Below, piece by piece: positions 23,964 to 42,809 of a stretch of 64,000 bases of DNA. Source of the DNA: Melioribacter sp. GTDB lineage: Bacteria; Bacteroidota; Ignavibacteria; Ignavibacteriales; Melioribacteraceae. The position numbers and the translations under genes were made by a program. Where the stretch lies: positions 354-64,353 of the forward strand of contig PMDS01000025.1 of the NCBI GenBank assembly GCA_003155655.1, read 5' to 3'. The number at the start of each line of letters is the position of its first letter. Position 1 is the first letter of the stretch. The notes under the pieces are model-generated. The model did not search any database, was not told the DNA's origin, and was given only the letters and a program-made list of their open reading frames with translations.

Positions 23964-25229
23964 ATGATTGAATTAAAACCGGTACCTAAAGAACGTGCAA
24001 TTTTAATTGCTCTTGTAAGCGGCTATGATACAAAAGATATGGTAGAAGAACATCTTGACGAACTGGAACTGCTGACGGATACTGCGGGCGCGGAAACAGT
24101 CTTTAAAATAATCCAGGACCGGAATAGGCCCGACCCGGCTTTTTTTATTGGAAAGGGAAAGGCAGAAGAAGTTGCGCAGCTTATTGAATTGAATAATATT
24201 CAGCTTGTAATATTTGATGACGATCTTAACCCCACACAGGCACGTAACCTTGAAAAACTATTTGAGCGTAAAATTTTGGATCGCAGCGGTCTTATACTAG
24301 ATATCTTTGCCTCTCACGCTCAAACACGCGAAGCTAAAACGCAGGTAGAACTTGCCCAGTTACAATATATGCTTCCGCGCTTAACTCGCGCATGGACGCA
24401 TCTGTCGAAACAGTATGGTGGAATCGGGACTAAGGGTCCCGGTGAAACACAGATTGAAACCGACAGAAGAATTATACGTACACGTATAAGCAAGCTGAAA
24501 GAAAATTTAAAGAAAATTGAAGCGCAGCAGACAACTAAAAGCGCAATGAGGAAAGAACAGATTACCGCTTGCCTTGTAGGATATACAAATGCCGGAAAAT
24601 CAACGCTGCTTAATAGATTAACTAAAGCAGGGGTCCTGGCAGAAGACAAATTGTTTGCTACTCTTGATTCAACAACACGCTCTTTTGAAATAGAAAAGAA
24701 AAAAAATATTTTACTGAGCGATACTGTTGGGTTTATACGCAAACTGCCGCATCATCTTGTTGCATCTTTCAAGAGCACGCTTAATGTTGTTAAGGAAGCT
24801 GATGTTATTCTTCATGTGATAGACGTTTCCCATGATTTTTTTGAGGATCACATTAATGTTGTTGATTCTACTTTGGAAGAACTTAACAGCAATAAAAAAA
24901 TTCAGATTAAAATATTTAATAAAGTTGATGCGTTAAAAGATAAAAACAGAATAGATTACGTTTTAAATAAGTATCAAAACAGCATTCTGATTTCTGCCGA
25001 ACGCGGAATTAATATAGCTAATTTGAAAAAGCTTCTGATTGAAATTTATGAGAAAGAATTTGTTGAAGGGAAAATCGTACTGCTGCACTCGCAGTCAAAA
25101 CTTGTTTCCCAATTATATGACATGGTGGAAATTATTTCTGCCGATTATCAGGATGAATCAATTGTAATTACTTACAGGACAAATTCATCAACACACAATA
25201 AAATTCAAAGAATGATAAAAGAGAAATAA
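23964..25229 (+). CDS. hflX: GTPase HflX
   Basis: 421 aa with the HflX N-domain and a G-domain (GYTNAGKST, DTVGF, NKVD). Confidence 0.9.
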   Translation: MIELKPVPKERAILIALVSGYDTKDMVEEHLDELELLTDTAGAETVFKIIQDRNRPDPAFFIGKGKAEEVAQLIELNNIQLVIFDDDLNPTQARNLEKLFERKILDRSGLILDIFASHAQTREAKTQVELAQLQYMLPRLTRAWTHLSKQYGGIGTKGPGETQIETDRRIIRTRISKLKENLKKIEAQQTTKSAMRKEQITACLVGYTNAGKSTLLNRLTKAGVLAEDKLFATLDSTTRSFEIEKKKNILLSDTVGFIRKLPHHLVASFKSTLNVVKEADVILHVIDVSHDFFEDHINVVDSTLEELNSNKKIQIKIFNKVDALKDKNRIDYVLNKYQNSILISAERGINIANLKKLLIEIYEKEFVEGKIVLLHSQSKLVSQLYDMVEIISADYQDESIVITYRTNSSTHNKIQRMIKEK

Positions 25230-25320
25230 GTTGTAAATATTTTTAGGATAAATTTCTTGGGGGATTTTGAAAATATCTAAAGAAGAACCCTCTTTGTATA
25301 AACTTTTGGTTATGCCATAA

Positions 25321-25803
25321 TTAATTTTTAGTATAAGGCAAATTATCACAAATAATTTCAAAAATAAATGTTAATGATTCCGGAGAATATACATTCCCAC
25401 GCAAACTTTGTACTAAATCATGAAAAATTCTTGGTGATATAATTGAACTTGAATCCTCGAATCTATTTGTTTCACTACAGCAAATAGCAAATCCCATATG
25501 TAAGGCAACTAATTCGTTAATTGCCAAGAATTTTTGTTTATTGTCCTCAAGGTAACTAATAGGTTTTAATTTTCTTATCCAAAAAGACATACAACCTGCA
25601 ATTTTGGATTTATTAGGAGTAGCGACCCCTAATAATATAAGGGATTTTAATGCCCTTGCTTCTACTTCATCCAAGATATTAGTATCGGTAATCATATTGC
25701 ACTTAAATAATTTACTATAAATCACTACAATTTTATAGAATATTTTTTTCCAATCAATTACCGATATAATTTCTTCGATAGTTGCTGATTTGTGAGATTC
25801 CAT
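25321..25803 (-). CDS. Hypothetical protein in an AT-rich islet
   Basis: 160-aa ORF with very AT-rich codon usage and no recognisable motif. Confidence 0.4.
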   Translation of the reverse strand: MESHKSATIEEIISVIDWKKIFYKIVVIYSKLFKCNMITDTNILDEVEARALKSLILLGVATPNKSKIAGCMSFWIRKLKPISYLEDNKQKFLAINELVALHMGFAICCSETNRFEDSSSIISPRIFHDLVQSLRGNVYSPESLTFIFEIICDNLPYTKN

Positions 25804-25815
25804 TTTTATAAGAAG

Positions 25816-26031
25816 TTAATTTTTTCTTTTTTTTTGTTTTATAAAAAGATTTGATGCTAATAACTGTTCAACACATTTATCATTGATGATTTTTTTTGCT
25901 TGAACAACGCCTTTTAATATACTTTTCGTTGTTAATTGCTCACCACTATTTCTCAATGAATTAGTGTTAAAGTTAGTGACACTGAAGTCTGAATTACGTA
26001 TGCCTATTTTTTTAACAATTGAGTTCCCCAA
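25816..26031 (-). CDS. Small hypothetical protein (basic, K-rich)
   Basis: 71-aa ORF co-directional with, and between, the cyclase and the 160-aa ORF. Confidence 0.3.
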   Translation of the reverse strand: MGNSIVKKIGIRNSDFSVTNFNTNSLRNSGEQLTTKSILKGVVQAKKIINDKCVEQLLASNLFIKQKKRKN

Positions 26032-26104
26032 TCGTACGCCCTAGTTTCTAAATATTAAATTATTATATTCTATAACCATATGCAAGAAAAAATGCTATCC
26101 AGAA

Positions 26105-27151
26105 TTAGGACAAAACATCGTTTAAATTGGGGGAGATACCGTTTATAGTTAGTCTTAATAATAGATGCCCTAAATCATCACATTTTAGCCATATATCTTC
26201 ATTGTCTAAAAATTTTACTTTACCCAAGAAATCATCTCCATTATAATAATAGTCTGATTGTTTTTTTATTACTCTAATACTTCTTTTAACATTCATTGAA
26301 CTATTCTCTTGAAAGAGTAATTCATAGTTTATTATCGAAAAATCATCACTGAAAATTAATAGTTCTGAATATTTATTTCTATTTATCCATGACTCAAACT
26401 TACATATATTATTATTCCTCTCAGTAATTTCAAATCTTATATCAGGGTTGGATTTACTTAAAATAATACTAGCTTTTTTTATCTTTTCTTTAATGTAAAT
26501 TAATAATTTATGAGTTTCTTCAGTGTTGAGTAAATATTCTTTATAATTAGCGTAAATACTAAAGCTTTTTTCATCTATGATTTTGTTGACTAATTCCGTA
26601 AAATAATTTTCAACTTCACTTTTATAAATAAGTTCGTATACTACTATAGTACCATATCCTTTCACCAATGCCATCTGACCTAATTTAATGCCGACAATAT
26701 TCTGCACATTAGTGTTTCTAAAATGTCTATAGAATAAATCTGAACAATAGATGTGGTTGCTTTTTGTTATTGGTTCCAATCTAGCTGTTAAATCTATTCC
26801 CTTCCCAATAACTTCTGTTTTGCCCCCTTCATTTATTATTATTATCTCTGCTACATTTATTGCAATTCTGATTTGTGGAATAAATCCAAGATCAAGGTAT
26901 TCTTCCTTTAAGTTTATAAAATTCTCTTTTAACTCAAAAGCAAATTCTACACATTGGGCACACTTTTCAAAACAAACCAAAACAGCATCTCCCCATGTTT
27001 TTTCATGGAAAATTGTTTTTTTATCGTTATTTTTTTTTATGCATTTATGAAAAAAATCTGATAATGCAAGTTTTTTACTGTCATCTTGGATTTTTGAAAA
27101 TCCCGCAATGTCAGCAAATAATATCGGTGTAATTCTAGTAATCATAGACAT
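26105..27151 (-). CDS. Class III nucleotidyl cyclase (CHD) with an uncharacterised ~170-aa C-terminal domain
   Basis: 348 aa. The N-terminal FADIAGFS ... TWGDAVLVCF ... IRIAINVAEII...GKGIDLTARLE motifs match the metal-binding Asp and substrate-binding motifs of the adenylyl/guanylyl cyclase catalytic domain. Confidence 0.75.
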   Translation of the reverse strand: MSMITRITPILFADIAGFSKIQDDSKKLALSDFFHKCIKKNNDKKTIFHEKTWGDAVLVCFEKCAQCVEFAFELKENFINLKEEYLDLGFIPQIRIAINVAEIIIINEGGKTEVIGKGIDLTARLEPITKSNHIYCSDLFYRHFRNTNVQNIVGIKLGQMALVKGYGTIVVYELIYKSEVENYFTELVNKIIDEKSFSIYANYKEYLLNTEETHKLLIYIKEKIKKASIILSKSNPDIRFEITERNNNICKFESWINRNKYSELLIFSDDFSIINYELLFQENSSMNVKRSIRVIKKQSDYYYNGDDFLGKVKFLDNEDIWLKCDDLGHLLLRLTINGISPNLNDVLS

Positions 27152-27341
27152 GTAAAGTTACTCGCCAACTCACTTTTTCCAATACTATATTTATTATGAA
27201 CTTTATATCTTAATATATTGTACGCATACTCATAATGAATCAATATATATATTATTCAGTTTTTTAAAATCGTGAAAAATATTTTAGTGTATGGAATTTA
27301 TAGTCACTAATTAATTTATTATCATTATTGTTAAATGTAAA

Positions 27342-27524
27342 TTATTTATTGTCTTGAAAATCCGGTTTTTGAGTCTTTGATTTATCCTTATAAAGACTCT
27401 CTTTGCCTAGTCTTTCTTTTCTGTCAACCCATTTGTCAATTTTCATAATCAATAATCCAAACAAAGCCAGTCCAATAAGAACAAGTAATGTAACAGCTAT
27501 AAACGCAATTGTATAAATGCTCAT
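27342..27524 (-). CDS. Small single-TM protein with a charged tail
   Basis: 60 aa with one hydrophobic helix and a Lys/Asp-rich C-terminus. It sits just upstream of the cyclase on the same strand. Confidence 0.35.
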   Translation of the reverse strand: MSIYTIAFIAVTLLVLIGLALFGLLIMKIDKWVDRKERLGKESLYKDKSKTQKPDFQDNK

Positions 27525-27666
27525 ATTTTTCTTTTATATTTTAGACGCTTGAATCATATAAAATCCAATATTAAAGTACAAATTCATTAATAAAATACTT
27601 AGATGCTTTTTAGTTAAGTCTTCTTAAGTTTCATAAGACAATTTTCCAATTTTTGGAGGTAACTGT

Positions 27667-29190
27667 ATGTCAATTGTTCTTGATGGAACAAATCTAACAG
27701 TAGAAAAAGTAGTTGCAATTGCCCGGGGAAATGAAAAAGTGGAGCTGCATCCTCAGGCTCTTGAAAGAATAAAAGTATGCCGCACTATGCTGGAAGATAA
27801 AATTAAAGCTCACGAAATAATGTACGGAGTTAATACCGGAATCGGTGAGTTTTCCGAAGTTGTTTTGAATGATGAACAGGTAAAAGATTTTCAAAGGTAT
27901 CTTATATATAACCACGCTGCCGGAATTGGCGACCCTGCCCCAATTGAATATGTACGCGGGGCAATGGCTGGAAGAATTAATGTTCATGCACACGGTATGT
28001 CGGGCATCCGGCCTGAAATTACTCTTACACTAATTGAAATGCTCAATAAAGGAGTTACTCCTTTTGTTTGCCAGAAAGGATCTGTTGGCGCATGTGGAGA
28101 TCTGGCGCCAATGAGTCAAATTGCTTTATTGTTGATGGGAGAAGGAGAAGCATTTTATAAAGGAGAATTAATTCCAGGTAAAGATGCATTTGAAAAAGCA
28201 GGAATTAAAATTCCCGGGCTGCAGGCAAGAGATGGACTAGGAACAATCAATGGTTCTAATCTTCTTACGGCAATGAGCGCCATTCATATTTATGATATGA
28301 ACAGGTGGCTGAAGCAGGCAGAGATTGCATGCGCAATGACGCTTGAAGCTCTGTTTGCTAATTTAAAACCTTATGATTCACGCCTTCATGAAGTGCGCGG
28401 ATTTAAAGGTGCAGTTAGAAGCACAAAAGCAATCATGAAGTGCATTATGGGAAGCGACCTTCAAACCGGAAAACTTAAAACAAAAGTCCAGGATGCATAT
28501 TCAATGCGCTCATCGCCCCAGGTAATTGGTTCAGCACATGATGTAGTGGCTTATGCAAAGAGCCAGGTTGAAATAGAATTAAATGGAGTCGGTGATAATC
28601 CTATTTTTATGCCTGAGTTTAACCTAACGCTTACGGGTGCAAACTTTCAGGGTTCACCTGTTTCTCTTCCAATGGATATGGTGGGAGCGGCAATTACAAT
28701 GGTGAGTGTCTTATCCGAAAGAAGATTGAACAGGCTGCTGAATTCTGCATTGAGCGTTGGACTGCCTGAATTCCTTACAAAGGGCGCCGGTATGTTTTCA
28801 GGATTGATGCTGAGCCAGTACACTGCCGATACATTAATTGTTGAGCAAAGAATTTTATCCATGCCTGCATCAGTTCAATCAATTCCCGCAGCAGCAGACC
28901 AGGAAGACTTTGTTTCAATGGGAATGAATACCGCAATAAAGAACGGACAAATATTAGACAACGCTTATGGAATTTTGGGAATTGAATTTATAGCGGCAGC
29001 ACAGGCGCTTGATTTTAGAAATTTTACAAATGGCAAAGGCGTTACTAAAGCAAGAGAAATTGTAAGAAAATATGTTGAACATCTTGACGTTGACCGCCCT
29101 TTATATCCCGATCACACAAAAATGAAACAGGTTGTTAAAAGCAGCGAAATTTTAGAGGAAGTAGAAAAAGCAGTCGGTTCTTTAGAATAA
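27667..29190 (+). CDS. hutH: Histidine ammonia-lyase family (MIO-dependent aromatic amino acid ammonia-lyase) with an A-C-G MIO motif
   Basis: 507 aa with the HAL/PAL fold. The GSVGACGDLAPMS motif has Ala-Cys-Gly in place of the canonical Ala-Ser-Gly. A strong SD (GGAGGT) precedes the ATG. Confidence 0.8.
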   Translation: MSIVLDGTNLTVEKVVAIARGNEKVELHPQALERIKVCRTMLEDKIKAHEIMYGVNTGIGEFSEVVLNDEQVKDFQRYLIYNHAAGIGDPAPIEYVRGAMAGRINVHAHGMSGIRPEITLTLIEMLNKGVTPFVCQKGSVGACGDLAPMSQIALLLMGEGEAFYKGELIPGKDAFEKAGIKIPGLQARDGLGTINGSNLLTAMSAIHIYDMNRWLKQAEIACAMTLEALFANLKPYDSRLHEVRGFKGAVRSTKAIMKCIMGSDLQTGKLKTKVQDAYSMRSSPQVIGSAHDVVAYAKSQVEIELNGVGDNPIFMPEFNLTLTGANFQGSPVSLPMDMVGAAITMVSVLSERRLNRLLNSALSVGLPEFLTKGAGMFSGLMLSQYTADTLIVEQRILSMPASVQSIPAAADQEDFVSMGMNTAIKNGQILDNAYGILGIEFIAAAQALDFRNFTNGKGVTKAREIVRKYVEHLDVDRPLYPDHTKMKQVVKSSEILEEVEKAVGSLE

Positions 29191-29313: not shown

Positions 29314-29553
29314 GTGAAGACAATTACTGCAACAAAAGCACGTCTAAATTTTTATAAGCTGATAGATGAAATAGCAAAAACCAATCGCCCAATTCAAATT
29401 ACCAGCAAGCGTACTAACGCAGTCTTAATTTCGGAAAATGACTGGGGTGCAATTCAAGAAACTCTTTATCTTTTGTCAATTCCTGGTATGAGAGAGTCAA
29501 TTGTAAATGGTATGAAAACACCAATTGAAAAGTGTTCATCGGGAATTAAATAG
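29314..29553 (+). CDS. Phd/YefM family type II antitoxin (apparently orphan)
   Basis: 79 aa. ITATKARLNFYKLIDEI...PIQITSKRTNAVLISENDWGAIQETLYL matches the YefM/Phd fold and motif. No intact YoeB/RelE-type toxin gene follows. Confidence 0.75.
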   Translation: MKTITATKARLNFYKLIDEIAKTNRPIQITSKRTNAVLISENDWGAIQETLYLLSIPGMRESIVNGMKTPIEKCSSGIK

Positions 29554-37196: not shown

Positions 37197-40100
37197 ATGT
37201 CGAAACATAAAGACCCACTTGAATATTTTAGATTAAAGCCGATAAAAGCCGCAAAGGTTTCGGAGGTAAGTGAAACAACCGCTTCTTCAGGAGTGCCTGC
37301 TGAAGAAAGAGTAAATTTTCACATCGGTAACCCTGTGCAGGATAAACAGCTTTCTTCGGCTTATTTGCGGTTGATATTGGGCGTGGGAATCGAAAATCAA
37401 TTTTTAACTGATGATAATCTTGATGACGTTGTTAAATATCTGGATAGAGGTGTGGATGAAAAAGTTAAAGTTGAATTCTTATCAGCTCTCATAAAGAAAA
37501 GCGCGCCATATATGCCGCGGGGCGGGTATACTAAAAGCAATCCAAATTTTTTGATAAAATCATTTAATGAATGGCTTGTAAAAGATCAACAGGAACCGCT
37601 CTCCTATGATCTGGGCGAGGTCTCCGGCAAGCGGGAAATTATTTTAGCTTCAGGTGGCGTTGATGAAGCACTGAGAATTCTGTTTCTTGCTTTGCCTAAT
37701 TATTTTTTAAACCAAAACATAAAATTTCTTTTATACGAAAAAAATCTTCCCAAACATCTTTTGTCAATACCGTCTATTCAATTTGAAAGTATTGCACAGG
37801 ATGAGACAAAGCTTGTTAAAAATGTTAGAGAACAATTGATTAATTCCCAGGGAGTTCCAACATTTTTAATTCTAGGGAAAAATACAAGTGAAGGAACAAG
37901 AAGGAGCCTTCGTCATCTTAGTCTTGAACTCCCTCTCTTTTTTATAGAGGTCAATGATGCTCCTAATCATTTATCTCTTTCCCGTGAAGCAAAAATGATG
38001 AACAGGGTTCTGCGTTTTTTAACACCGCAAATTTTTTCTTCCAAATTTGCAAATCTCTCAACTGTTTTTATAGTCGGCAATTCCGAATTTATAAAGGTAA
38101 TAGAGACAATTCATTTCCAATTAAAAGGCACCCCTTCAGCCTCAGAAGTGGAATTTCTTTCGTTTCTAATAAAAGAAAATCTTGTAATTGAAACCGGTAA
38201 CGATAGAAAAATAGAAATTGAGCCATCATACGAAAGCAGCCTGTTGAAAATTGCCGGCGAAAAAACTACCGGGCCCCATGCAAAGTATATTGAAAATAAA
38301 TTATCTAATGCTGTTGAGCGGGCATCAAATATTTTAGAAGGCACTATTGGAAAAATTTCGATTAAAGAAAATGCAGTTGTAAACCGGTCAAAGAAATTAT
38401 TGTCATTTTTTTCGTTTGATAAATTTTCAGAAAAAGATGCTTTAGTGTTGCTTGATGAATTTATTGAAAATGTCGATTCATTAGCTTGGTTTGAAGAACT
38501 TATTGACAGCTTTCTTCATTCTTTTGTTAAGCACCATCCCGAATACAATATTAAGAATTGTGTAATAGCCAGCGGGTCATCCCGCACAGGTCTTGGACTG
38601 CTTGGTTTCCACTGCGGCATAAAGGAAGTTATAATTCCGGATTTAAGCTGGACTTACGAGCATTGTTTTCCCAAAGTTACTGTTGTTGCTCTCAAAGAGA
38701 ATTTCGAAATAGATGTTGATGCTTTGATTAATGCAGTTGAACATGCTCTATCGGCGGATCCTCACTGGAATAATTATGGCGCAGTTGTTTTGAACAATCC
38801 TCATAATGCAACGGGACAGCAGTTTGACAGCAGTGAGTTGAAACGTCTTCTTAAATGGGCGCTTGAGAAAAATATTTTTGTTATAGATGATCTCTCATAT
38901 CAAAACGTTGAACCGGTTGATGCTTTAAATCAAATAAAAACAATCAGGCAGCTGGCAGACGAACTTTATTCGGCAGGCTACATAACAAGAGAGCAGTCAA
39001 ATTTAGTTATTACTGTTCATTCGGTTTCAAAAACAGATTCACTTGCAGGCGCACGCCTTTCCGTTATGGAAATCCGCCATGAGGAATTGTTTAAAAAAGT
39101 TTCTGAAATTAATTCGACAATTAAACCGAACATAACGGCAATATTTTTAACATACTTGTTTTATAGATGCCACGCAGAAAATGTAAATGCATATTGGCGT
39201 TTACGCAATGTGATATTCAAAGAAAGAATGGCTTCACTTAGTGAAGCTGTCGACATTTTACCTAAAGAACGGAACAGGTTCAGCATAGAAATTAAACCGC
39301 CCAAAGGCAGTATGTATCCTCAAATGATTATTAAAAAGCTGCCGTCAGGATTATCTCTGGATTGGCTTGCAACCGGTCTGGCAAGACAAGGAATTGGGCT
39401 TATTCCGCTTTCAACATTTGCACGAACTGAAAAAGGATTTGAGGCAGGAAGGAAAACATTTCGTTTAACGCTTGGCGGGACTGATAATTCTGAAATACTT
39501 CTCAAAAAAACGAGACGTGTTCTAATTGATTTAAACAGGATGATTGCCGAAGAGGCTGCAAATTATAATTGCAAGCAATTTAAAGTAATTCCACGAATTA
39601 CAAAAAAATTATTTATTCATAATGAACAAATAGATAAATGGAATCTGGTTGAAAATAAAATAATTGAATTGTGCAAGGAGAATGCTGCCGGGACTATTAA
39701 GCAGCACAATGATGAATTTTCAGACGAAACATACTATAAAAGATTTGCGAATGAATTTATTCCAGAAAGGCTATATCTTTTTAAAAGACGTTTTGATGAA
39801 AGATTGAACATTGCAAACGAGCTTATGGAATCTGCACTGGCTGATAAGGGAAAAAATCTTGCAGCAGTTCTTGAACGTGAATTTTATAAGGACAACCTTG
39901 AAAAGAGAGAACGGGCATTCAAGCTAAGATTATACGACAGAACTGTGCATCCAACTCAGATGTATTCTTTAAAAGTTGACCTGCTCTTCCAGGAAATTAT
40001 TGAATTAATAATTAGGAATAAGAATATTCCGCTTGTCCTTATTCAAAAATTGGCGGCAGAATTAGCCAAAGAATTCTTTGGACTGAATGTCTCAATTATT

Positions 40101-42809
40101 TCCGCTGAAGAACCTTACGAATTGATTCTTGATCTAAATACAATTATTGCCGCAGAAAATTTCACAAACTTACATTCGGACCTATCATTCCAAACATTTA
40201 TATCTTTTTGGGGTGACTGGGATGGAAGCACCCGTCCATCAGGACAGGGGCACAGTTTAGTTGCTGCAGTGTTAAAAGAAAATGTTGCACGCCAATCAAG
40301 ATTGATTCAACTGCTGGTAAAGAGCGATAAATCAGTTAAGATTGATCAGAATCTTCTTTCGGAGATAGAAAAACTGCCTGAAAAGAATAAGCGGTTTTCA
40401 AATTTGCTAAATGATATAACGTCGCTTACTCATCAGTTGGAAAAGAGATACCGCGGAATTCTGCCTTTCAATTTAAAACCGGGGCGGGTAAGGGAATTAG
40501 GAATGCGCCTGCACATTGCGCAGGACCCTTTAACTTCCCTGTGGCATCATAATGACCGGCTTGAAAGAAAAATGCTTGAACTTCGCCTGCAAAGAAGAAA
40601 CACGCTTGAATATTATTTCTCATTAAACAAACAGATGAGAAAAGTTCTTCATTCATTAATACCTTCAATAATAAAAAACATTAACAATGAAGAATTATTT
40701 CTTGAAGCATGTTTGTTTAAAGATTTACTTAAACGTTTTGTTGTTACTCCGCGCATTCATCAAAAATTGATTACAACACAGGATCAATTTGCAATAGACA
40801 CAACTGTATATAACATTAACGAGATTAACGAAATTTCCGGAAAATACGGTAACCCCGGTATGGTGCTGGCATTGCAGGTTAGCATGTCTACTAAAGCTGA
40901 TGCATTGATTTCAATTGATAGAAAAATGCGTGCAAGACGCGAACAAATTTTGCGTGATGATAATGAAACTGAACTCCCGTCCCCATCAATAATTCCTTTG
41001 TTTGAAGATACTGATTCAGTGAAGAACCTAACCAATTACTTAAATAAAATTTGGGAATATGCTCTTCAAAGCAGACGCATGAACCAGGAAACAAGTGAAA
41101 GATTTTCCGAGATTATTGCAGAAGTTTTTGTTGCCGGTTCCGATTTAAGCCAGCAGGTTGGGCAGGCAGCGGGAATGAATTTATATAAAGCAGCAAAACA
41201 CCAGTTGACTTCGTGGCTTGCTGAAAAGGGTTTGATTGGTAAAGTTAGAATGAAAATGGGCAGCGGTGAACCAATGCAGCGCCAGGGAGGTTATTATTCA
41301 AACGTTGTCGGCAAATCTGCTTTTATAAAATCTGCAGATTCCTTGAAGAGGTTTTCTCAATATCTTAAAGCTTCAACTAGAAAAAGTACAGAGTATGCAG
41401 CAACACCGTTGATTGGAGTTTTTGCAGGAGGGGATTTACGCACTTTTCAAAGCAACATCTCTGAAAAATTGAGATATATTTCTGTAAATGAATTATCGCA
41501 GCTTCTTTACCATGTAAAAGAGTCCCAAAAATTTTACGAAACAGAAATAAAACGCGCAGGTGAACCGCTTGTTGAAACCAGGCTGCAATTTAAAACCCGG
41601 GGCTTAAAAGAATTAGAACGTCTTACCATCGGCAGAAAAGACGAACTGTTTGATGATTTCTTGTCCATTCTTACGGAAAATTTCCGTCAAATTTTATATG
41701 GCCGCGAAGAAGATGTTGTGGGAATACATGTTATTTCTTATTTCATTGCTAGAACAACCCCAAACCTGCGTGATAGACCCACCGTACGACCAGTACAAGG
41801 CGCTTCAGGCAGCGAAGGACAAAAAATTCTGGAAAGGATTGCACAGACAATACCGTTCTCCCGTTATGGAAGTCTACTGAGGGCAATTGCCCATAATCAA
41901 TCGCAAACTGTTGTATTGGGAATTAACCAGTTGACTTCTGGATTATTCCGTGCACTTGATAGTTTTTCGCAAAAGCATTTTAGCGAAGGAGAAACAAGCT
42001 CTTTAATTGAAGATAGAATTCTTCCCAATCTGCCCGTTTATGAAATTCTGCATACATTGCGCACCTATCATGATGTGGATTTGATTTATTTAAATAAACT
42101 GGAAAAAGCATTCCCGGCGGGTAACTCTGCATTCATTGCATTAAGAGAAGATATCGATTCTTTAAACAAGTATTTAATTTTATTTCAGCGTGAACTTTTA
42201 AGGCGCCATGGGCTTAATGTAACAGACTTTTTTGACGAAGATCAGTTTATTGCAGATCTTTTACCAACTCTGCGCCCTGATCTGGCAGTAATCTTACAGC
42301 AGGATTTTTTCAATACCAATCCCGAAAAAGTACTTTCATCTATCAGCGGGCACGTAGACTCCAAATGGATGGAAGAAACAAGGAAAATTCTTGTTATACC
42401 GGACCAGGTAAAATATTTTCGTTCAAAAATCTGGGATCTGCTGGAGCAGCCGGTATACCAGCGTGTTGCAAGCTTTAGCGAACTTGCAATTGCCCTGCAT
42501 TCTCTCTCATCAAATGTGCAGACTAAAGAACTTCCATTTGCACCAAAAAAAATAAAGCCGTCTGCTGATATATCAAATTTCTTCAAGATGTCCGGCGATG
42601 ATAATATGCGCCAGTTCCTTGCTGCAGCATTTGAATATCTATCTACTGTTTCCGAAGGAATGGTTGAAGTACCCATAAATATAATTCGTGCAATGAAAGA
42701 AGTTGAACGTATTATAAAAATAGAAGAACTTGCTCTTTCCCACAAACAGCAGGATCTTTTGCGGTTTTATTTATTGCAGATAGCACGCCTAACCGGCGAG
42801 AACGGGTAA
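37197..42809 (+). CDS. Giant multidomain protein (1870 aa): PLP-dependent fold-type I aminotransferase-like domain fused to a full-length, motif-degenerate phosphoenolpyruvate carboxylase (PEPC)-like domain
   Basis: Aminotransferase motifs: NPHNATGQQF...FVIDDLSY and VHSVSKTDSLAGARLS (PLP lysine). PEPC-like motifs: TVHPTQ (compare TAHPTE), SFWGDWDGSTRP (compare SWMGGDRDGNP), LQVSMSTKADAL...IPLFEDTDSVKNL (compare ISMAKTPSDVLAV...APLFETLDDLNNA) and VFVAGSDLSQ...KMGSGEPMQRQGG (compare VMIGYSDSAKDAG...FHGRGGSIGRGG). The C-terminus TGENG compares with the PEPC C-terminal NTG. Confidence 0.85.
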   Translation: MSKHKDPLEYFRLKPIKAAKVSEVSETTASSGVPAEERVNFHIGNPVQDKQLSSAYLRLILGVGIENQFLTDDNLDDVVKYLDRGVDEKVKVEFLSALIKKSAPYMPRGGYTKSNPNFLIKSFNEWLVKDQQEPLSYDLGEVSGKREIILASGGVDEALRILFLALPNYFLNQNIKFLLYEKNLPKHLLSIPSIQFESIAQDETKLVKNVREQLINSQGVPTFLILGKNTSEGTRRSLRHLSLELPLFFIEVNDAPNHLSLSREAKMMNRVLRFLTPQIFSSKFANLSTVFIVGNSEFIKVIETIHFQLKGTPSASEVEFLSFLIKENLVIETGNDRKIEIEPSYESSLLKIAGEKTTGPHAKYIENKLSNAVERASNILEGTIGKISIKENAVVNRSKKLLSFFSFDKFSEKDALVLLDEFIENVDSLAWFEELIDSFLHSFVKHHPEYNIKNCVIASGSSRTGLGLLGFHCGIKEVIIPDLSWTYEHCFPKVTVVALKENFEIDVDALINAVEHALSADPHWNNYGAVVLNNPHNATGQQFDSSELKRLLKWALEKNIFVIDDLSYQNVEPVDALNQIKTIRQLADELYSAGYITREQSNLVITVHSVSKTDSLAGARLSVMEIRHEELFKKVSEINSTIKPNITAIFLTYLFYRCHAENVNAYWRLRNVIFKERMASLSEAVDILPKERNRFSIEIKPPKGSMYPQMIIKKLPSGLSLDWLATGLARQGIGLIPLSTFARTEKGFEAGRKTFRLTLGGTDNSEILLKKTRRVLIDLNRMIAEEAANYNCKQFKVIPRITKKLFIHNEQIDKWNLVENKIIELCKENAAGTIKQHNDEFSDETYYKRFANEFIPERLYLFKRRFDERLNIANELMESALADKGKNLAAVLEREFYKDNLEKRERAFKLRLYDRTVHPTQMYSLKVDLLFQEIIELIIRNKNIPLVLIQKLAAELAKEFFGLNVSIISAEEPYELILDLNTIIAAENFTNLHSDLSFQTFISFWGDWDGSTRPSGQGHSLVAAVLKENVARQSRLIQLLVKSDKSVKIDQNLLSEIEKLPEKNKRFSNLLNDITSLTHQLEKRYRGILPFNLKPGRVRELGMRLHIAQDPLTSLWHHNDRLERKMLELRLQRRNTLEYYFSLNKQMRKVLHSLIPSIIKNINNEELFLEACLFKDLLKRFVVTPRIHQKLITTQDQFAIDTTVYNINEINEISGKYGNPGMVLALQVSMSTKADALISIDRKMRARREQILRDDNETELPSPSIIPLFEDTDSVKNLTNYLNKIWEYALQSRRMNQETSERFSEIIAEVFVAGSDLSQQVGQAAGMNLYKAAKHQLTSWLAEKGLIGKVRMKMGSGEPMQRQGGYYSNVVGKSAFIKSADSLKRFSQYLKASTRKSTEYAATPLIGVFAGGDLRTFQSNISEKLRYISVNELSQLLYHVKESQKFYETEIKRAGEPLVETRLQFKTRGLKELERLTIGRKDELFDDFLSILTENFRQILYGREEDVVGIHVISYFIARTTPNLRDRPTVRPVQGASGSEGQKILERIAQTIPFSRYGSLLRAIAHNQSQTVVLGINQLTSGLFRALDSFSQKHFSEGETSSLIEDRILPNLPVYEILHTLRTYHDVDLIYLNKLEKAFPAGNSAFIALREDIDSLNKYLILFQRELLRRHGLNVTDFFDEDQFIADLLPTLRPDLAVILQQDFFNTNPEKVLSSISGHVDSKWMEETRKILVIPDQVKYFRSKIWDLLEQPVYQRVASFSELAIALHSLSSNVQTKELPFAPKKIKPSADISNFFKMSGDDNMRQFLAAAFEYLSTVSEGMVEVPINIIRAMKEVERIIKIEELALSHKQQDLLRFYLLQIARLTGENG

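Follow-up and report, generated by a model that had tools for sequence, protein, structure and literature searches.

Cyclic-mononucleotide immunity is so far represented by the Pycsar (PycC plus effector) and Pucsar (PucC plus CNBD-TIR or 3TM protein) systems, both of which pair a class III cyclase, located on accessory DNA, with an effector that binds cNMP. Besides, comparative genomics has assigned cNMP cyclases the part of nucleotide-signal domains in conflict systems and in NACHT proteins, as in the NACHT/STAND and vWA-MoxR systems (Kaur et al., 2020, PMC7159879; Kibby et al., 10.1101/2022.07.19.500537), including catalytically inactive cyclase domains (Kaur et al., PMC7159879), and an 'immune clade 1' of cyclases has been defined by STAND fusions (10.64898/2026.08.12.744502). 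A further related architecture is found in the stand-alone TIR-Y4lF proteins of about 320 aa, such as y4lF from plasmid pNGR234a of Sinorhizobium fredii NGR234, in which an enzyme domain for nucleotide processing at the N-terminus is followed by a Y4lF domain of about 165 aa at the C-terminus; their genes belong to accessory DNA and in some cases have defence genes as neighbors. In the 64,000-nt stretch of Melioribacter sp. DNA analysed here (contig PMDS01000025.1, in the following the window), an AT-rich insertion encodes a 348-aa protein with a class III cyclase domain, which may represent a divergent stand-alone sensor-cyclase with a plausible immune role, a reading to which we give roughly even chances.

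Between hflX (23964-25229) and the gene for an aromatic amino-acid lyase (HAL, 27667-29190), the base composition drops sharply, as had been noticed in a preceding sequence-only reading of this DNA. With 26.9% GC, the segment 25230-27666 shows the lowest value of all 2.4-kb stretches of the window (mean of 36.2% with a standard deviation of 2.2% for this size), and its spacers have only 20.5 and 22.5% GC. All four minus-strand ORFs proposed at that time (60, 348, 71 and 160 aa) exist, albeit not all of them belong to the islet. A synteny survey of about 40 related metagenome loci (HflX 45-87% identical) reveals a conserved order batA-hflX-(60 aa)-HAL, with the 60-aa gene and HAL following directly or closely after hflX. 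Copies of the 60-aa single-pass membrane protein (27342-27524, minus strand; KD19 maximum of 2.96) which are 60-75% identical adjoin HAL in 11 related loci, where HflX is 72-85% identical, and in three loci (L012, L018, and L020) such a copy is found directly after hflX without any cyclase gene. Since this core gene is conserved beside HAL, it forms the right boundary and stands outside the insertion proper, which extends from the hflX stop to the stop of the 60-aa gene (25230-27341, 2112 bp, about 27% GC compared to 36%). Hence, the AT-rich segment is real and accessory, but the limits originally given as 25250-27560 have to be corrected and the 60-aa gene has to be excluded. The comparison proposed there, whether the islet is absent from neighboring genomes with hflX directly next to HAL, thus shows the islet to be absent, with the 60-aa gene standing between the two. 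As a conserved core gene, this gene for the only TM protein of the segment was rejected as a Pycsar-like membrane effector or other partner of the cyclase.

The insertion carries three reading frames, the 348-aa gene, an ORF of 71 aa that is doubtful and an orphan of 160 aa, all encoded on the minus strand and separated by gaps of 73 and 12 nt. None of the three is present at any of the 40 related loci (tblastn, 1e-5). In relatives, other accessory genes are found inserted in this neighborhood. Among the loci compared, the insertion is thus found in one species only and is compositionally foreign, combining the two features of a horizontally acquired islet, deviant composition and absence at the syntenic site in relatives. 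Foreign AT-rich DNA of 2.1 kb would have entered the tail-to-tail gap between hflX and the conserved 60-aa gene. Neither an integrase or transposase gene nor an Rfam match was found in the islet, and the window lacks tRNA genes. The search for direct repeats flanking the insertion resulted in low-complexity matches only, none of them convincing, and promoter or terminator signals above background were not found in the islet. In the 190-bp spacer upstream of the cyclase gene (27152-27341, 20.5% GC), the presumed promoter region, promoter-like hexamers are no commoner than in shuffled sequences. An independent assembly of the locus ends within this spacer. Four additional metagenome assemblies contain a virtually identical locus; copies L003 and L004 show only two differences from the window, both non-synonymous, and the same genes are present in copies L009 and L011 (not aligned to the window).

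The 348-aa gene (26105-27151, minus strand) encodes a two-domain protein, with a cyclase homology domain at residues 1-178 (26618-27151) and a C-terminal domain of about 170 aa at residues 179-348 (26108-26617). For the former, the initial assignment to class III cyclases is corroborated by Foldseek, phmmer and a subfamily profile alike. The AF2 model of the N-terminal domain (pLDDT about 95) matches CyaB, Cya2, Rv1900c, and Ma1120 at E-values between 2.6e-12 and 1e-9 and target TM scores of 0.7-0.83 (CyaB 3r5g at E 2.6e-12 and 0.74), phmmer with the 348-aa protein finds PDB 3mr7 at E 9.7e-6, and the domain scores 172.8 bits (E 2.8e-55) against a profile made from 41 subfamily members with the query left out. 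Residues 1-178 form a class III cyclase domain bearing the motifs already quoted in the sequence-only reading, FADIAGFS, WGDAVLVCF, and GKGIDLTARLE. The metal-binding D14 (FADIAGFS) and D55 (WGD), which align with the metal Asp residues of CyaB, as well as R95 and R124 are invariant in all 42 aligned members. The fold, this Asp pair, the Lys at the base position (K51) and the catalytic Arg are shared with CyaB from P. aeruginosa (3r5g), Cya2 (2w01), and Rv1900c (1ybt). In contrast to canonical cyclases, however, identity is only 15-24%, the G-x-x-x-G hairpin motif after beta4 is missing (as read from the alignment), the PF00211 score of 17.9 bits stays under the Pfam cut-off of 21.9, and the transition-state Asn is replaced by Asp. 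In the N-x-x-x-R motif, whose Asn and Arg positions presumably correspond to N1025 and R1029 of mammalian AC, the Arg is thus kept (R124) and the Asn is not (D120); the 42 members show D in 17, N in 12, T in 5, S in 3 and other residues in 5 cases. Due to this replacement, enzymatic activity is uncertain. Substrate preference of class III cyclases is reflected in a base-specifying pair, Lys/Asp for ATP and Glu/Cys-type for GTP. As the query combines K51 (family: N 20, K 19, R 3) with E113 (family: D 25, N 7, E 3), the mixed occupation does not allow for reading the substrate from sequence.

The C-terminal half, which could not be placed in the sequence-only reading, does not match any Pfam, PDB or PADLOC entry, and its similarity to the Y4lF domain is only marginal. 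Y4lF profiles score 5-8 bits (5.1-7.8), values equalled or beaten by 8-32 of 2000 shuffled sequences (p about 0.004-0.016), and hhalign gives a probability of 14% at an E-value of 0.0019. The marginal alignment is in register, with profile positions 41-113 corresponding to positions 44-111 of the C-terminal half. For residues 179-348, a helix, a six-strand meander and a second helix are predicted in the order of the family model, with a pLDDT of about 85 for residues 210-270 and lower values afterwards, the input alignment having assumed homology. Precomputed Pfam annotation does not list Y4lF for the 348-aa protein, whereas it does so for relatives, and phmmer against 150 relatives finds insignificant matches only, mostly co-linear with their Y4lF domain. 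In the window's protein, the C-terminal domain is 14% identical to the family and is encoded by DNA of 24.5% GC, compared with 30% for the N-terminal domain. Hence, this half is possibly a very diverged Y4lF-type domain with frataxin-like fold. AGS-C was rejected as an alternative identity, with family members matching Guanylate_cyc alone in the Pfam copy searched, which is assumed to contain an AGS-C model.

An exhaustive HMMER search with the query gives 1117 matches at E≤1e-3, and the majority of the top 60 or so are proteins of 335-360 aa, the best of them being 30-40% identical. Most close members have about 345 aa and a C-terminal Y4lF domain (Guanylate_cyc plus PF27176), a set whose N-terminal subfamily cyclase domain is shared by the 348-aa protein. 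With the window's protein as the sole exception, 41 of the 42 alignment members match the PADLOC model PDLC00420 ('ThsB1') at positions 156-316. This model represents full-length TIR plus Y4lF plasmid proteins, including y4lF of NGR234, and on plasmids the Y4lF domain is found fused to TIR rather than to cyclase (tblastn on plasmids). Among the top 150 HMMER matches, distant members scoring 55-95 bits show fusions to NACHT (P0062), TPR (P0016), FGE-sulfatase (P0039), TPR-S (P0077), and HEAT (P0126). Judging by these partners, the STAND-linked 'immune clade 1' appears to be a closer likeness of the subfamily than the Pycsar clade. The subfamily is fast-evolving, and its C-terminal domain in particular evolves fast, with a mean identity within the family of 25% compared to 38% for the N-terminal domain. 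In about 11 genomic contexts examined, two cyclase genes are located in clear defence or integrative islands (L005 and L069, the latter with a type I R-M system on one side and an integrase gene on the other), two others (L006 and L008) lie among housekeeping genes without defence neighbors and a further one (L001, encoding P0002) follows a GAF histidine kinase and a response regulator. A contig search with a 7-sequence alignment found four loci. In a word-indexed search of 5.8 billion proteins, the cyclase retrieved only its self-copy and one distant relative, and the Y4lF alignment retrieved nothing; relatives were not found in IMG/VR.

Based on the subfamily fusions to NACHT, TPR-S, and FGE-sulfatase and the occurrence of the relatives' C-terminal domain on TIR proteins, the 348-aa protein probably has an immune role. 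The defence role originally put forward is therefore plausible, albeit unproven, yet it is not that of a recognized Pycsar-like system. In other bacteria, the subfamily occupies the position which TIR holds in a parallel set of proteins, as N-terminal enzymatic module beside sensor or NTPase modules (Y4lF, NACHT, TPR-S, FGE-sulfatase or HEAT). In the mechanism we propose, the cyclase would be kept inactive by the C-terminal half, which is probably an alpha/beta sandwich of strongly diverged Y4lF type, until a trigger binds, for example, a phage component. Cyclase domains might then pair as the head-to-tail dimer that forms the active site in class III enzymes and convert NTP to a 3',5'-cyclic nucleotide, which could signal to an effector, with the 160-aa orphan or a protein encoded elsewhere as candidates, or the reaction itself might drain the NTP pool. 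The TIR-Y4lF proteins are likewise stand-alone and accessory and share their C-terminal domain with the proteins most closely related to the 348-aa protein. In contrast to them, the latter has a class III cyclase as enzyme domain and a C-terminal half that aligns with Y4lF only marginally, and a ThsA-type effector is not encoded nearby. Any link to Thoeris exists solely via the Y4lF domain of its relatives, as none of the islet proteins matches TIR, ThsA or ThsB. By HMMER, the cyclase modules of the NACHT/STAND and vWA-MoxR systems mentioned above fall into the same subfamily, but the 348-aa protein lacks NTPase, repeat and adaptor domains, and vWA or MoxR genes are not present nearby.

A more far-reaching proposal is that cyclase-Y4lF proteins in general are single-gene anti-phage sensors in which the cyclase replaces TIR and which dispense with a linked cNMP-binding effector, acting by collapse of the NTP pool or via a cyclic nucleotide that is sensed by an effector encoded elsewhere or of an entirely new kind (e.g., the 160-aa protein). 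We consider this unlikely. If true, the cyclase itself would be the executor of immunity, as stand-alone TIRs are by depleting NAD. In this set, a cyclase takes the TIR position on the same C-terminal domain with no recognizable effector. Experimental work on these proteins of about 345 aa was not found in the literature. Should they be immune proteins, they would raise the questions of whether a nucleotide cyclase can be a stand-alone effector and what Y4lF senses. The window's locus is of more modest value here, as one very divergent, species-specific example.

Compared with an immune sensor-cyclase, an ordinary regulatory enzyme appears rather unlikely, i.e., an accessory cAMP- or cGMP-forming protein whose C-terminal domain senses a metabolite or a partner and which feeds normal cNMP regulators without any defence function. 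Retention of the class III fold and of catalytic Asp and Arg residues would suit it, and so would the relatives found alone among housekeeping genes or behind the histidine kinase and response regulator, as well as STAS, FHA or REC modules discerned by eye in other members, which are typical of signaling proteins. However, none of the related genomes examined has the gene, which occupies a variable hotspot, its relatives share the C-terminal domain with plasmid TIR proteins while the subfamily extends to NACHT, TPR-S, and FGE-sulfatase fusions, and the stronger divergence of the C-terminal compared with the N-terminal domain is more readily explained by an arms race than by a metabolic sensor. 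Quite improbable is a decaying or catalytically dead remnant, shaped by AT drift, with the Asn lost, the C-terminal domain degenerated and the small ORFs being due to chance or left over. D120 could be regarded as such a lesion, but with Asp being the commonest residue at this position it is a family trait, and all other invariant residues are kept. The low GC content and 14% family identity of the C-terminal domain, the chance length of the 71-aa ORF, the 160-aa ORF being without homologue among 5.8 billion proteins, and the inactive cyclase domains known from conflict systems (Kaur et al., PMC7159879) are compatible with decay. On the other hand, the frame of 348 codons is intact in DNA of 27% GC, a length not reached in any Markov simulation (160 codons in 0.05%), and the locus is preserved virtually unchanged in the four further assemblies.

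Highly improbable, finally, is a Pycsar- or Pucsar-like two-gene system in which the 160-aa (or 71-aa) protein binds the cyclic nucleotide as a new effector. The window's cyclase may, by analogy, produce a cyclic mononucleotide immune signal as in these systems, the three ORFs share one direction and are separated by short gaps only, and on a plasmid a distantly related cyclase (25% identity) is encoded two genes from an annotated Pycsar effector. However, the likeness to Pycsar suggested in the sequence-only reading did not hold. PycC models do not match the 348-aa protein at E≤1, although weak matches are found in 11 of 42 relatives (best at 3.2e-7), and none of the four islet-region proteins matches any PADLOC model, PycC included. 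In agreement with that reading, in which no CAP-like effector was recognizable, a gene for a cNMP-binding TIR, 3TM or CAP-like effector was not found at the locus, and the 160-aa and 71-aa proteins show no clear TM helix and no cNMP-binding, TIR or multi-TM features. A role as partners is not supported for them either, homologues being absent in relatives and beside any related cyclase gene in the family loci examined, where an unrelated upstream protein of about 100 aa, missing here, is the only recurring neighbor. The 160-aa ORF (25321-25803, minus strand), encoding a soluble orphan, has its sole match among 5.8 billion proteins in the same species' copy and no Pfam, NCBIfam, PADLOC, PHROG, PDB or phage match, but its length is beyond chance (at least 160 codons in 0.05% of Markov-simulated islets) and it is probably a real gene. 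For the basic 71-aa ORF (25816-26031, minus strand), likewise without Pfam, NCBIfam, PADLOC or PHROG match, coding status is doubtful; it has a TTG start and no internal Met, and its length is no more than expected by chance, as ORFs of 71 codons or more occur in 31% of the simulated islets. In two assemblies it is called with 71 aa and in a third one as a 46-aa gene.

All four minus-strand ORFs that the sequence-only reading had described between hflX (23964–25229, product with GTP-bdg_N, GTP-bdg_M and MMR_HSR1 domains) and an aromatic amino-acid lyase gene (HAL, 27667–29190, 521 bits) are present, encoding proteins of 60 aa (27342–27524, one strong membrane helix), 348 aa (26105–27151), 71 aa (25816–26031, TTG start and no internal Met) and 160 aa (25321–25803, an orphan). 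The drop in base composition is likewise real, with a GC content of 26.9% for 25230–27666 versus a window mean of 36.2% (sd 2.2%, windows of equal size), the lowest value for any stretch of this size in the whole 64 kb, and two spacers at only 20.5 and 22.5%. Beyond, SpoIID, BatA, AlaS and an ECF sigma/anti-sigma pair represent ordinary housekeeping flanks.

From a metagenome scan with HflX, 43 loci were obtained, 40 of which (L012–L051) were compared by placing the window proteins with tblastn. The gene order batA-hflX-(60-aa gene, minus strand)-HAL recurs where HflX is 72–85% identical. In the metagenome loci L012 and L018, the 60-aa gene follows only a few tens of bases past hflX, with HAL directly after it in L018, while the L012 contig stops before the HAL position. 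As this gene is kept beside hflX and HAL, its product showing 60–75% identity across 11 related loci, it is a core gene outside the islet and not a component of it as previously assumed. The single-pass membrane protein is tied to hflX/HAL. Homologues of the cyclase and of the 71-aa and 160-aa ORFs, on the other hand, were not detectable in any of the 40 loci. Hence, the region is indeed accessory, and the foreign insertion comprises 25230–27341 (2112 bp), where hflX and the 60-aa gene meet tail to tail. The islet is also found in same-species contigs from other samples, the two aligned copies (L003 and L004) being virtually identical to the window. Neither a tRNA nor an integrase was found, and flanking repeats were not convincing. 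An independent assembly (SRR7151544, L009/L011) breaks at the spacer of 20.5% GC that separates the cyclase and 60-aa genes (27152–27341), probably because DNA so extremely AT-rich is hard to cover or assemble. Beyond HAL, a Phd/YefM-type antitoxin gene (29314–29553, plus strand, 62 bits), also kept in the same-species contig L011, has no toxin ORF downstream, is followed by a convergent 138-aa lipoprotein-like ORF and looks like an orphan antitoxin. Further on, an 1870-aa ORF (37197–42809, plus strand) has an aminotransferase class I/II domain at residues 431–761 as its sole Pfam match, leaving more than 1400 residues without one.

The hflX/60-aa gene/HAL neighbourhood behaves as a variable hotspot, because relatives carry differing material around the same genes. 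In some, a second lyase paralogue, 36–37% identical to the window HAL, lies between hflX and the 60-aa gene (L017 6256–7800; L023 7714–9258; L024/L026 7734–9278; L030 7271–8809); the window has no such paralogue. Other relatives show inserts of 0.5–2.4 kb (L023 9905–11687; L020 6961–7809; L024 9470–9898; L030 9015–9452; L022 7277–7681), with a GC content below that of their own locus in all except L022. Inspected by eye, these encode an HD-domain dGTPase-like protein accompanied by a 186-aa ORF (L023), small Y1 (RAYT-like) transposase-like proteins (L024 and L030), a 282-aa protein and a small lipoprotein.

Residues 1–178 of the 348-aa protein are a class III cyclase homology domain, as had been recognized from the motifs. 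By phmmer, it matches PDB 3mr7 (E 9.7e-6), CyaB and a guanylyl cyclase, and among the structures that resemble the AlphaFold model of this half (pLDDT about 95) are CyaB, Cya2, Rv1900c and Ma1120 (E 1e-12 to 1e-9, target TM-scores 0.7–0.83); the Pfam cyclase model gives 17.9 bits, just below its cut-off of 21.9. The metal-binding D14 and D55, the beta4 arginine R95 and the catalytic arginine R124 are kept. The transition-state asparagine is replaced by D120, a family trait and not a lesion, since in the 42-sequence family alignment this position is Asp in 17 members, Asn in 12 and another residue in 13. At the adenine-specifying position, the lysine of the window protein is found in 19 members, with Asn in 20 and Arg in three, so that no substrate can be predicted from it. 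Invariant in the same alignment are an E-P pair after the catalytic arginine (E126, P127) and K164, which, together with the preference for Asp over Asn, hint that the chemistry or the handling of substrate may be altered.

When 1.84 billion representatives were searched exhaustively with HMMER, 1117 matches passed E ≤ 1e-3, of which 115 also passed E ≤ 1e-10; the closest one other than the protein itself is only 36% identical. Most of the top 60 or so matches are proteins of 335–360 aa, and a profile built from 41 members, leaving out the window protein, scores the N-terminal domain of the latter at 172.8 bits. The C-terminal 165 or so residues of the family form a separate domain, for which a confident model (pLDDT 89.5) shows a long helix followed by an antiparallel meander of six strands and then a C-terminal helix; the domain carries the precomputed annotation PF27176 'Y4lF'. 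In 41 of the 42 aligned members, all but the window protein, it matches positions 156–316 of the PADLOC model PDLC00420 'ThsB1|ThsB' (best E 4e-34). Searching plasmids with this domain by tblastn returned 35 records, nearly all annotated as TIR-domain proteins, including y4lF of NGR234. Three of these (317–323 aa, TIR_2 at residues 4–110 or so), encoded on plasmids pPUV-6 (L061 4554–5507), of Desulfosarcina BuS5 (L062 4491–5447) and pNGR234a (L063 3467–4438), align with PDLC00420 over its full length (E 1e-121 to 1e-163). Their genes stand alone; a PLD-like anti-phage gene adjoins one of them, a DNA methylase is encoded near another, and no ThsA-type gene is nearby in the three contexts. Perhaps PDLC00420 therefore represents a TIR family of single genes and not a part of Thoeris. 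As cyclase members and plasmid TIR proteins share it, the Y4lF domain has two alternative partners, TIR and this cyclase.

More distant members of the cyclase subfamily, scoring 55–95 bits to the window protein, occur in immune-type architectures as fusions with NACHT (P0062), long TPR arrays (P0016), FGE-sulfatase (P0039), TPR-S (P0077) and HEAT repeats (P0126). These fusions agree with published comparative genomics, in which cNMP cyclases are nucleotide-signal domains of vWA-MoxR and related conflict systems, with FGS-domain fusions also described (Kaur et al., 2020; PMC7159879), and are listed among the N-terminal modules of bacterial NACHT proteins (Kibby et al.; 10.1101/2022.07.19.500537). 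A 2026 preprint (10.64898/2026.08.12.744502) sets 'immune clade 1', defined by STAND fusions, apart from the Pycsar/Pucsar 'clade 2'; judging from its fusion partners, the subfamily would fall into the former.

The C-terminal half of the intact two-domain gene product itself, the weak link of this reading, has no match in Pfam, PADLOC or PDB, the precomputed Pfam record of the 348-aa protein being empty. Three Y4lF profiles, two from cyclase-linked members and a third to which further cyclase-linked and three TIR-linked sequences were added, score it at 5.1, 7.0 and 7.8 bits, values that 32, 10 and 8, respectively, of 2000 shuffles of the sequence also reached, and hhalign gives 14% probability. 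The aligned stretch is in register (profile 41–113 versus segment 44–111), the length is right for Y4lF, and the predicted succession (helix, six strands, helix) agrees with the family model, albeit from an input alignment that presupposed homology and with confidence dropping after residue 270. Within the family, mean identity is 25% for the C-terminal versus 38% for the N-terminal domain, the former evolving faster; for the C-terminal domain of the window protein it is 14%. This half is thus probably, though by no means certainly, a very diverged Y4lF domain.

Eleven genomic contexts of family members were seen, too few for statistics, indicating a mostly stand-alone gene on accessory DNA, sometimes in defence islands. 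P0011 (L069) has a complete type I R-M system on one side and a phage integrase on the other, and the L005 member, its neighbours inspected by eye from translations, lies behind a large methyltransferase, after two zinc-ribbon proteins and before an Mrr-type-nuclease-like gene. Directly upstream of the cyclase-Y4lF gene, three independent loci (L056 88–405; L059 1210–1515; L066 5595–5897) share a protein of about 100 aa (40–42% identity, E 1e-24 to 1e-27, without a recorded Pfam hit), a candidate conserved partner in part of the family that is absent from the window.

In the proposed mechanism, the C-terminal domain would act as a sensor or regulatory module, upon whose activation the cyclase would dimerise and convert NTP into a cyclic nucleotide. 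Either this product might signal to an effector that escapes recognition here, or the reaction might deplete NTP, in analogy to the stand-alone TIR proteins that consume NAD and occupy the same architectural position. An ordinary regulatory cyclase is a less probable reading; P0002 is preceded by a GAF histidine kinase and a response regulator, and the members in two Melioribacteraceae MAGs (L006 and L008) are solitary among housekeeping genes. Less likely still are a decaying remnant and a genuine two-gene system whose effector would be the 160-aa protein. In 2000 simulated sequences with the islet's own dinucleotide make-up, ORFs of at least 160 codons arose in 0.05% and of at least 348 codons in none, and the 160-aa ORF very probably is, or recently was, a genuine gene. 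For a length of at least 71 codons, the figure is 31%; the 71-aa ORF, called differently by one gene caller, is unproven as a gene. Neither has a match in Pfam, NCBIfam, PADLOC or PHROGs, and the 160-aa ORF finds nothing in PDB, no relative in phage genomes and, among 5.8 billion proteins, only its own species' copy. Nor do similar ORFs stand beside any cyclase relative examined, and the two are not demonstrable partners.

Of the sequence-only reading, a cyclase on accessory DNA with a possibly defensive role therefore stands, while the likeness to Pycsar does not, there being no PycC match and no cNMP-binding or multi-TM effector among the islet proteins, and none of the small genes is a demonstrable partner. 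Thoeris does not fit either, with neither TIR nor ThsA. The 348-aa protein is most alike to the TIR-Y4lF 'ThsB1-like' proteins, having a cyclase where they have TIR, and resembles the cyclase modules of NACHT/STAND proteins, yet without the NTPase. Most of the interest lies in the uncharacterised cyclase-Y4lF family rather than in the divergent copy of the window. A distant cyclase relative (25% identity, 489 aa) on the Priestia aryabhattai plasmid NZ_CP128553.1 (L055 3118–7744) stands in a run of an annotated Pycsar effector, two hypothetical proteins, the cyclase and an RyR-domain protein, with a large TIR protein nearby.
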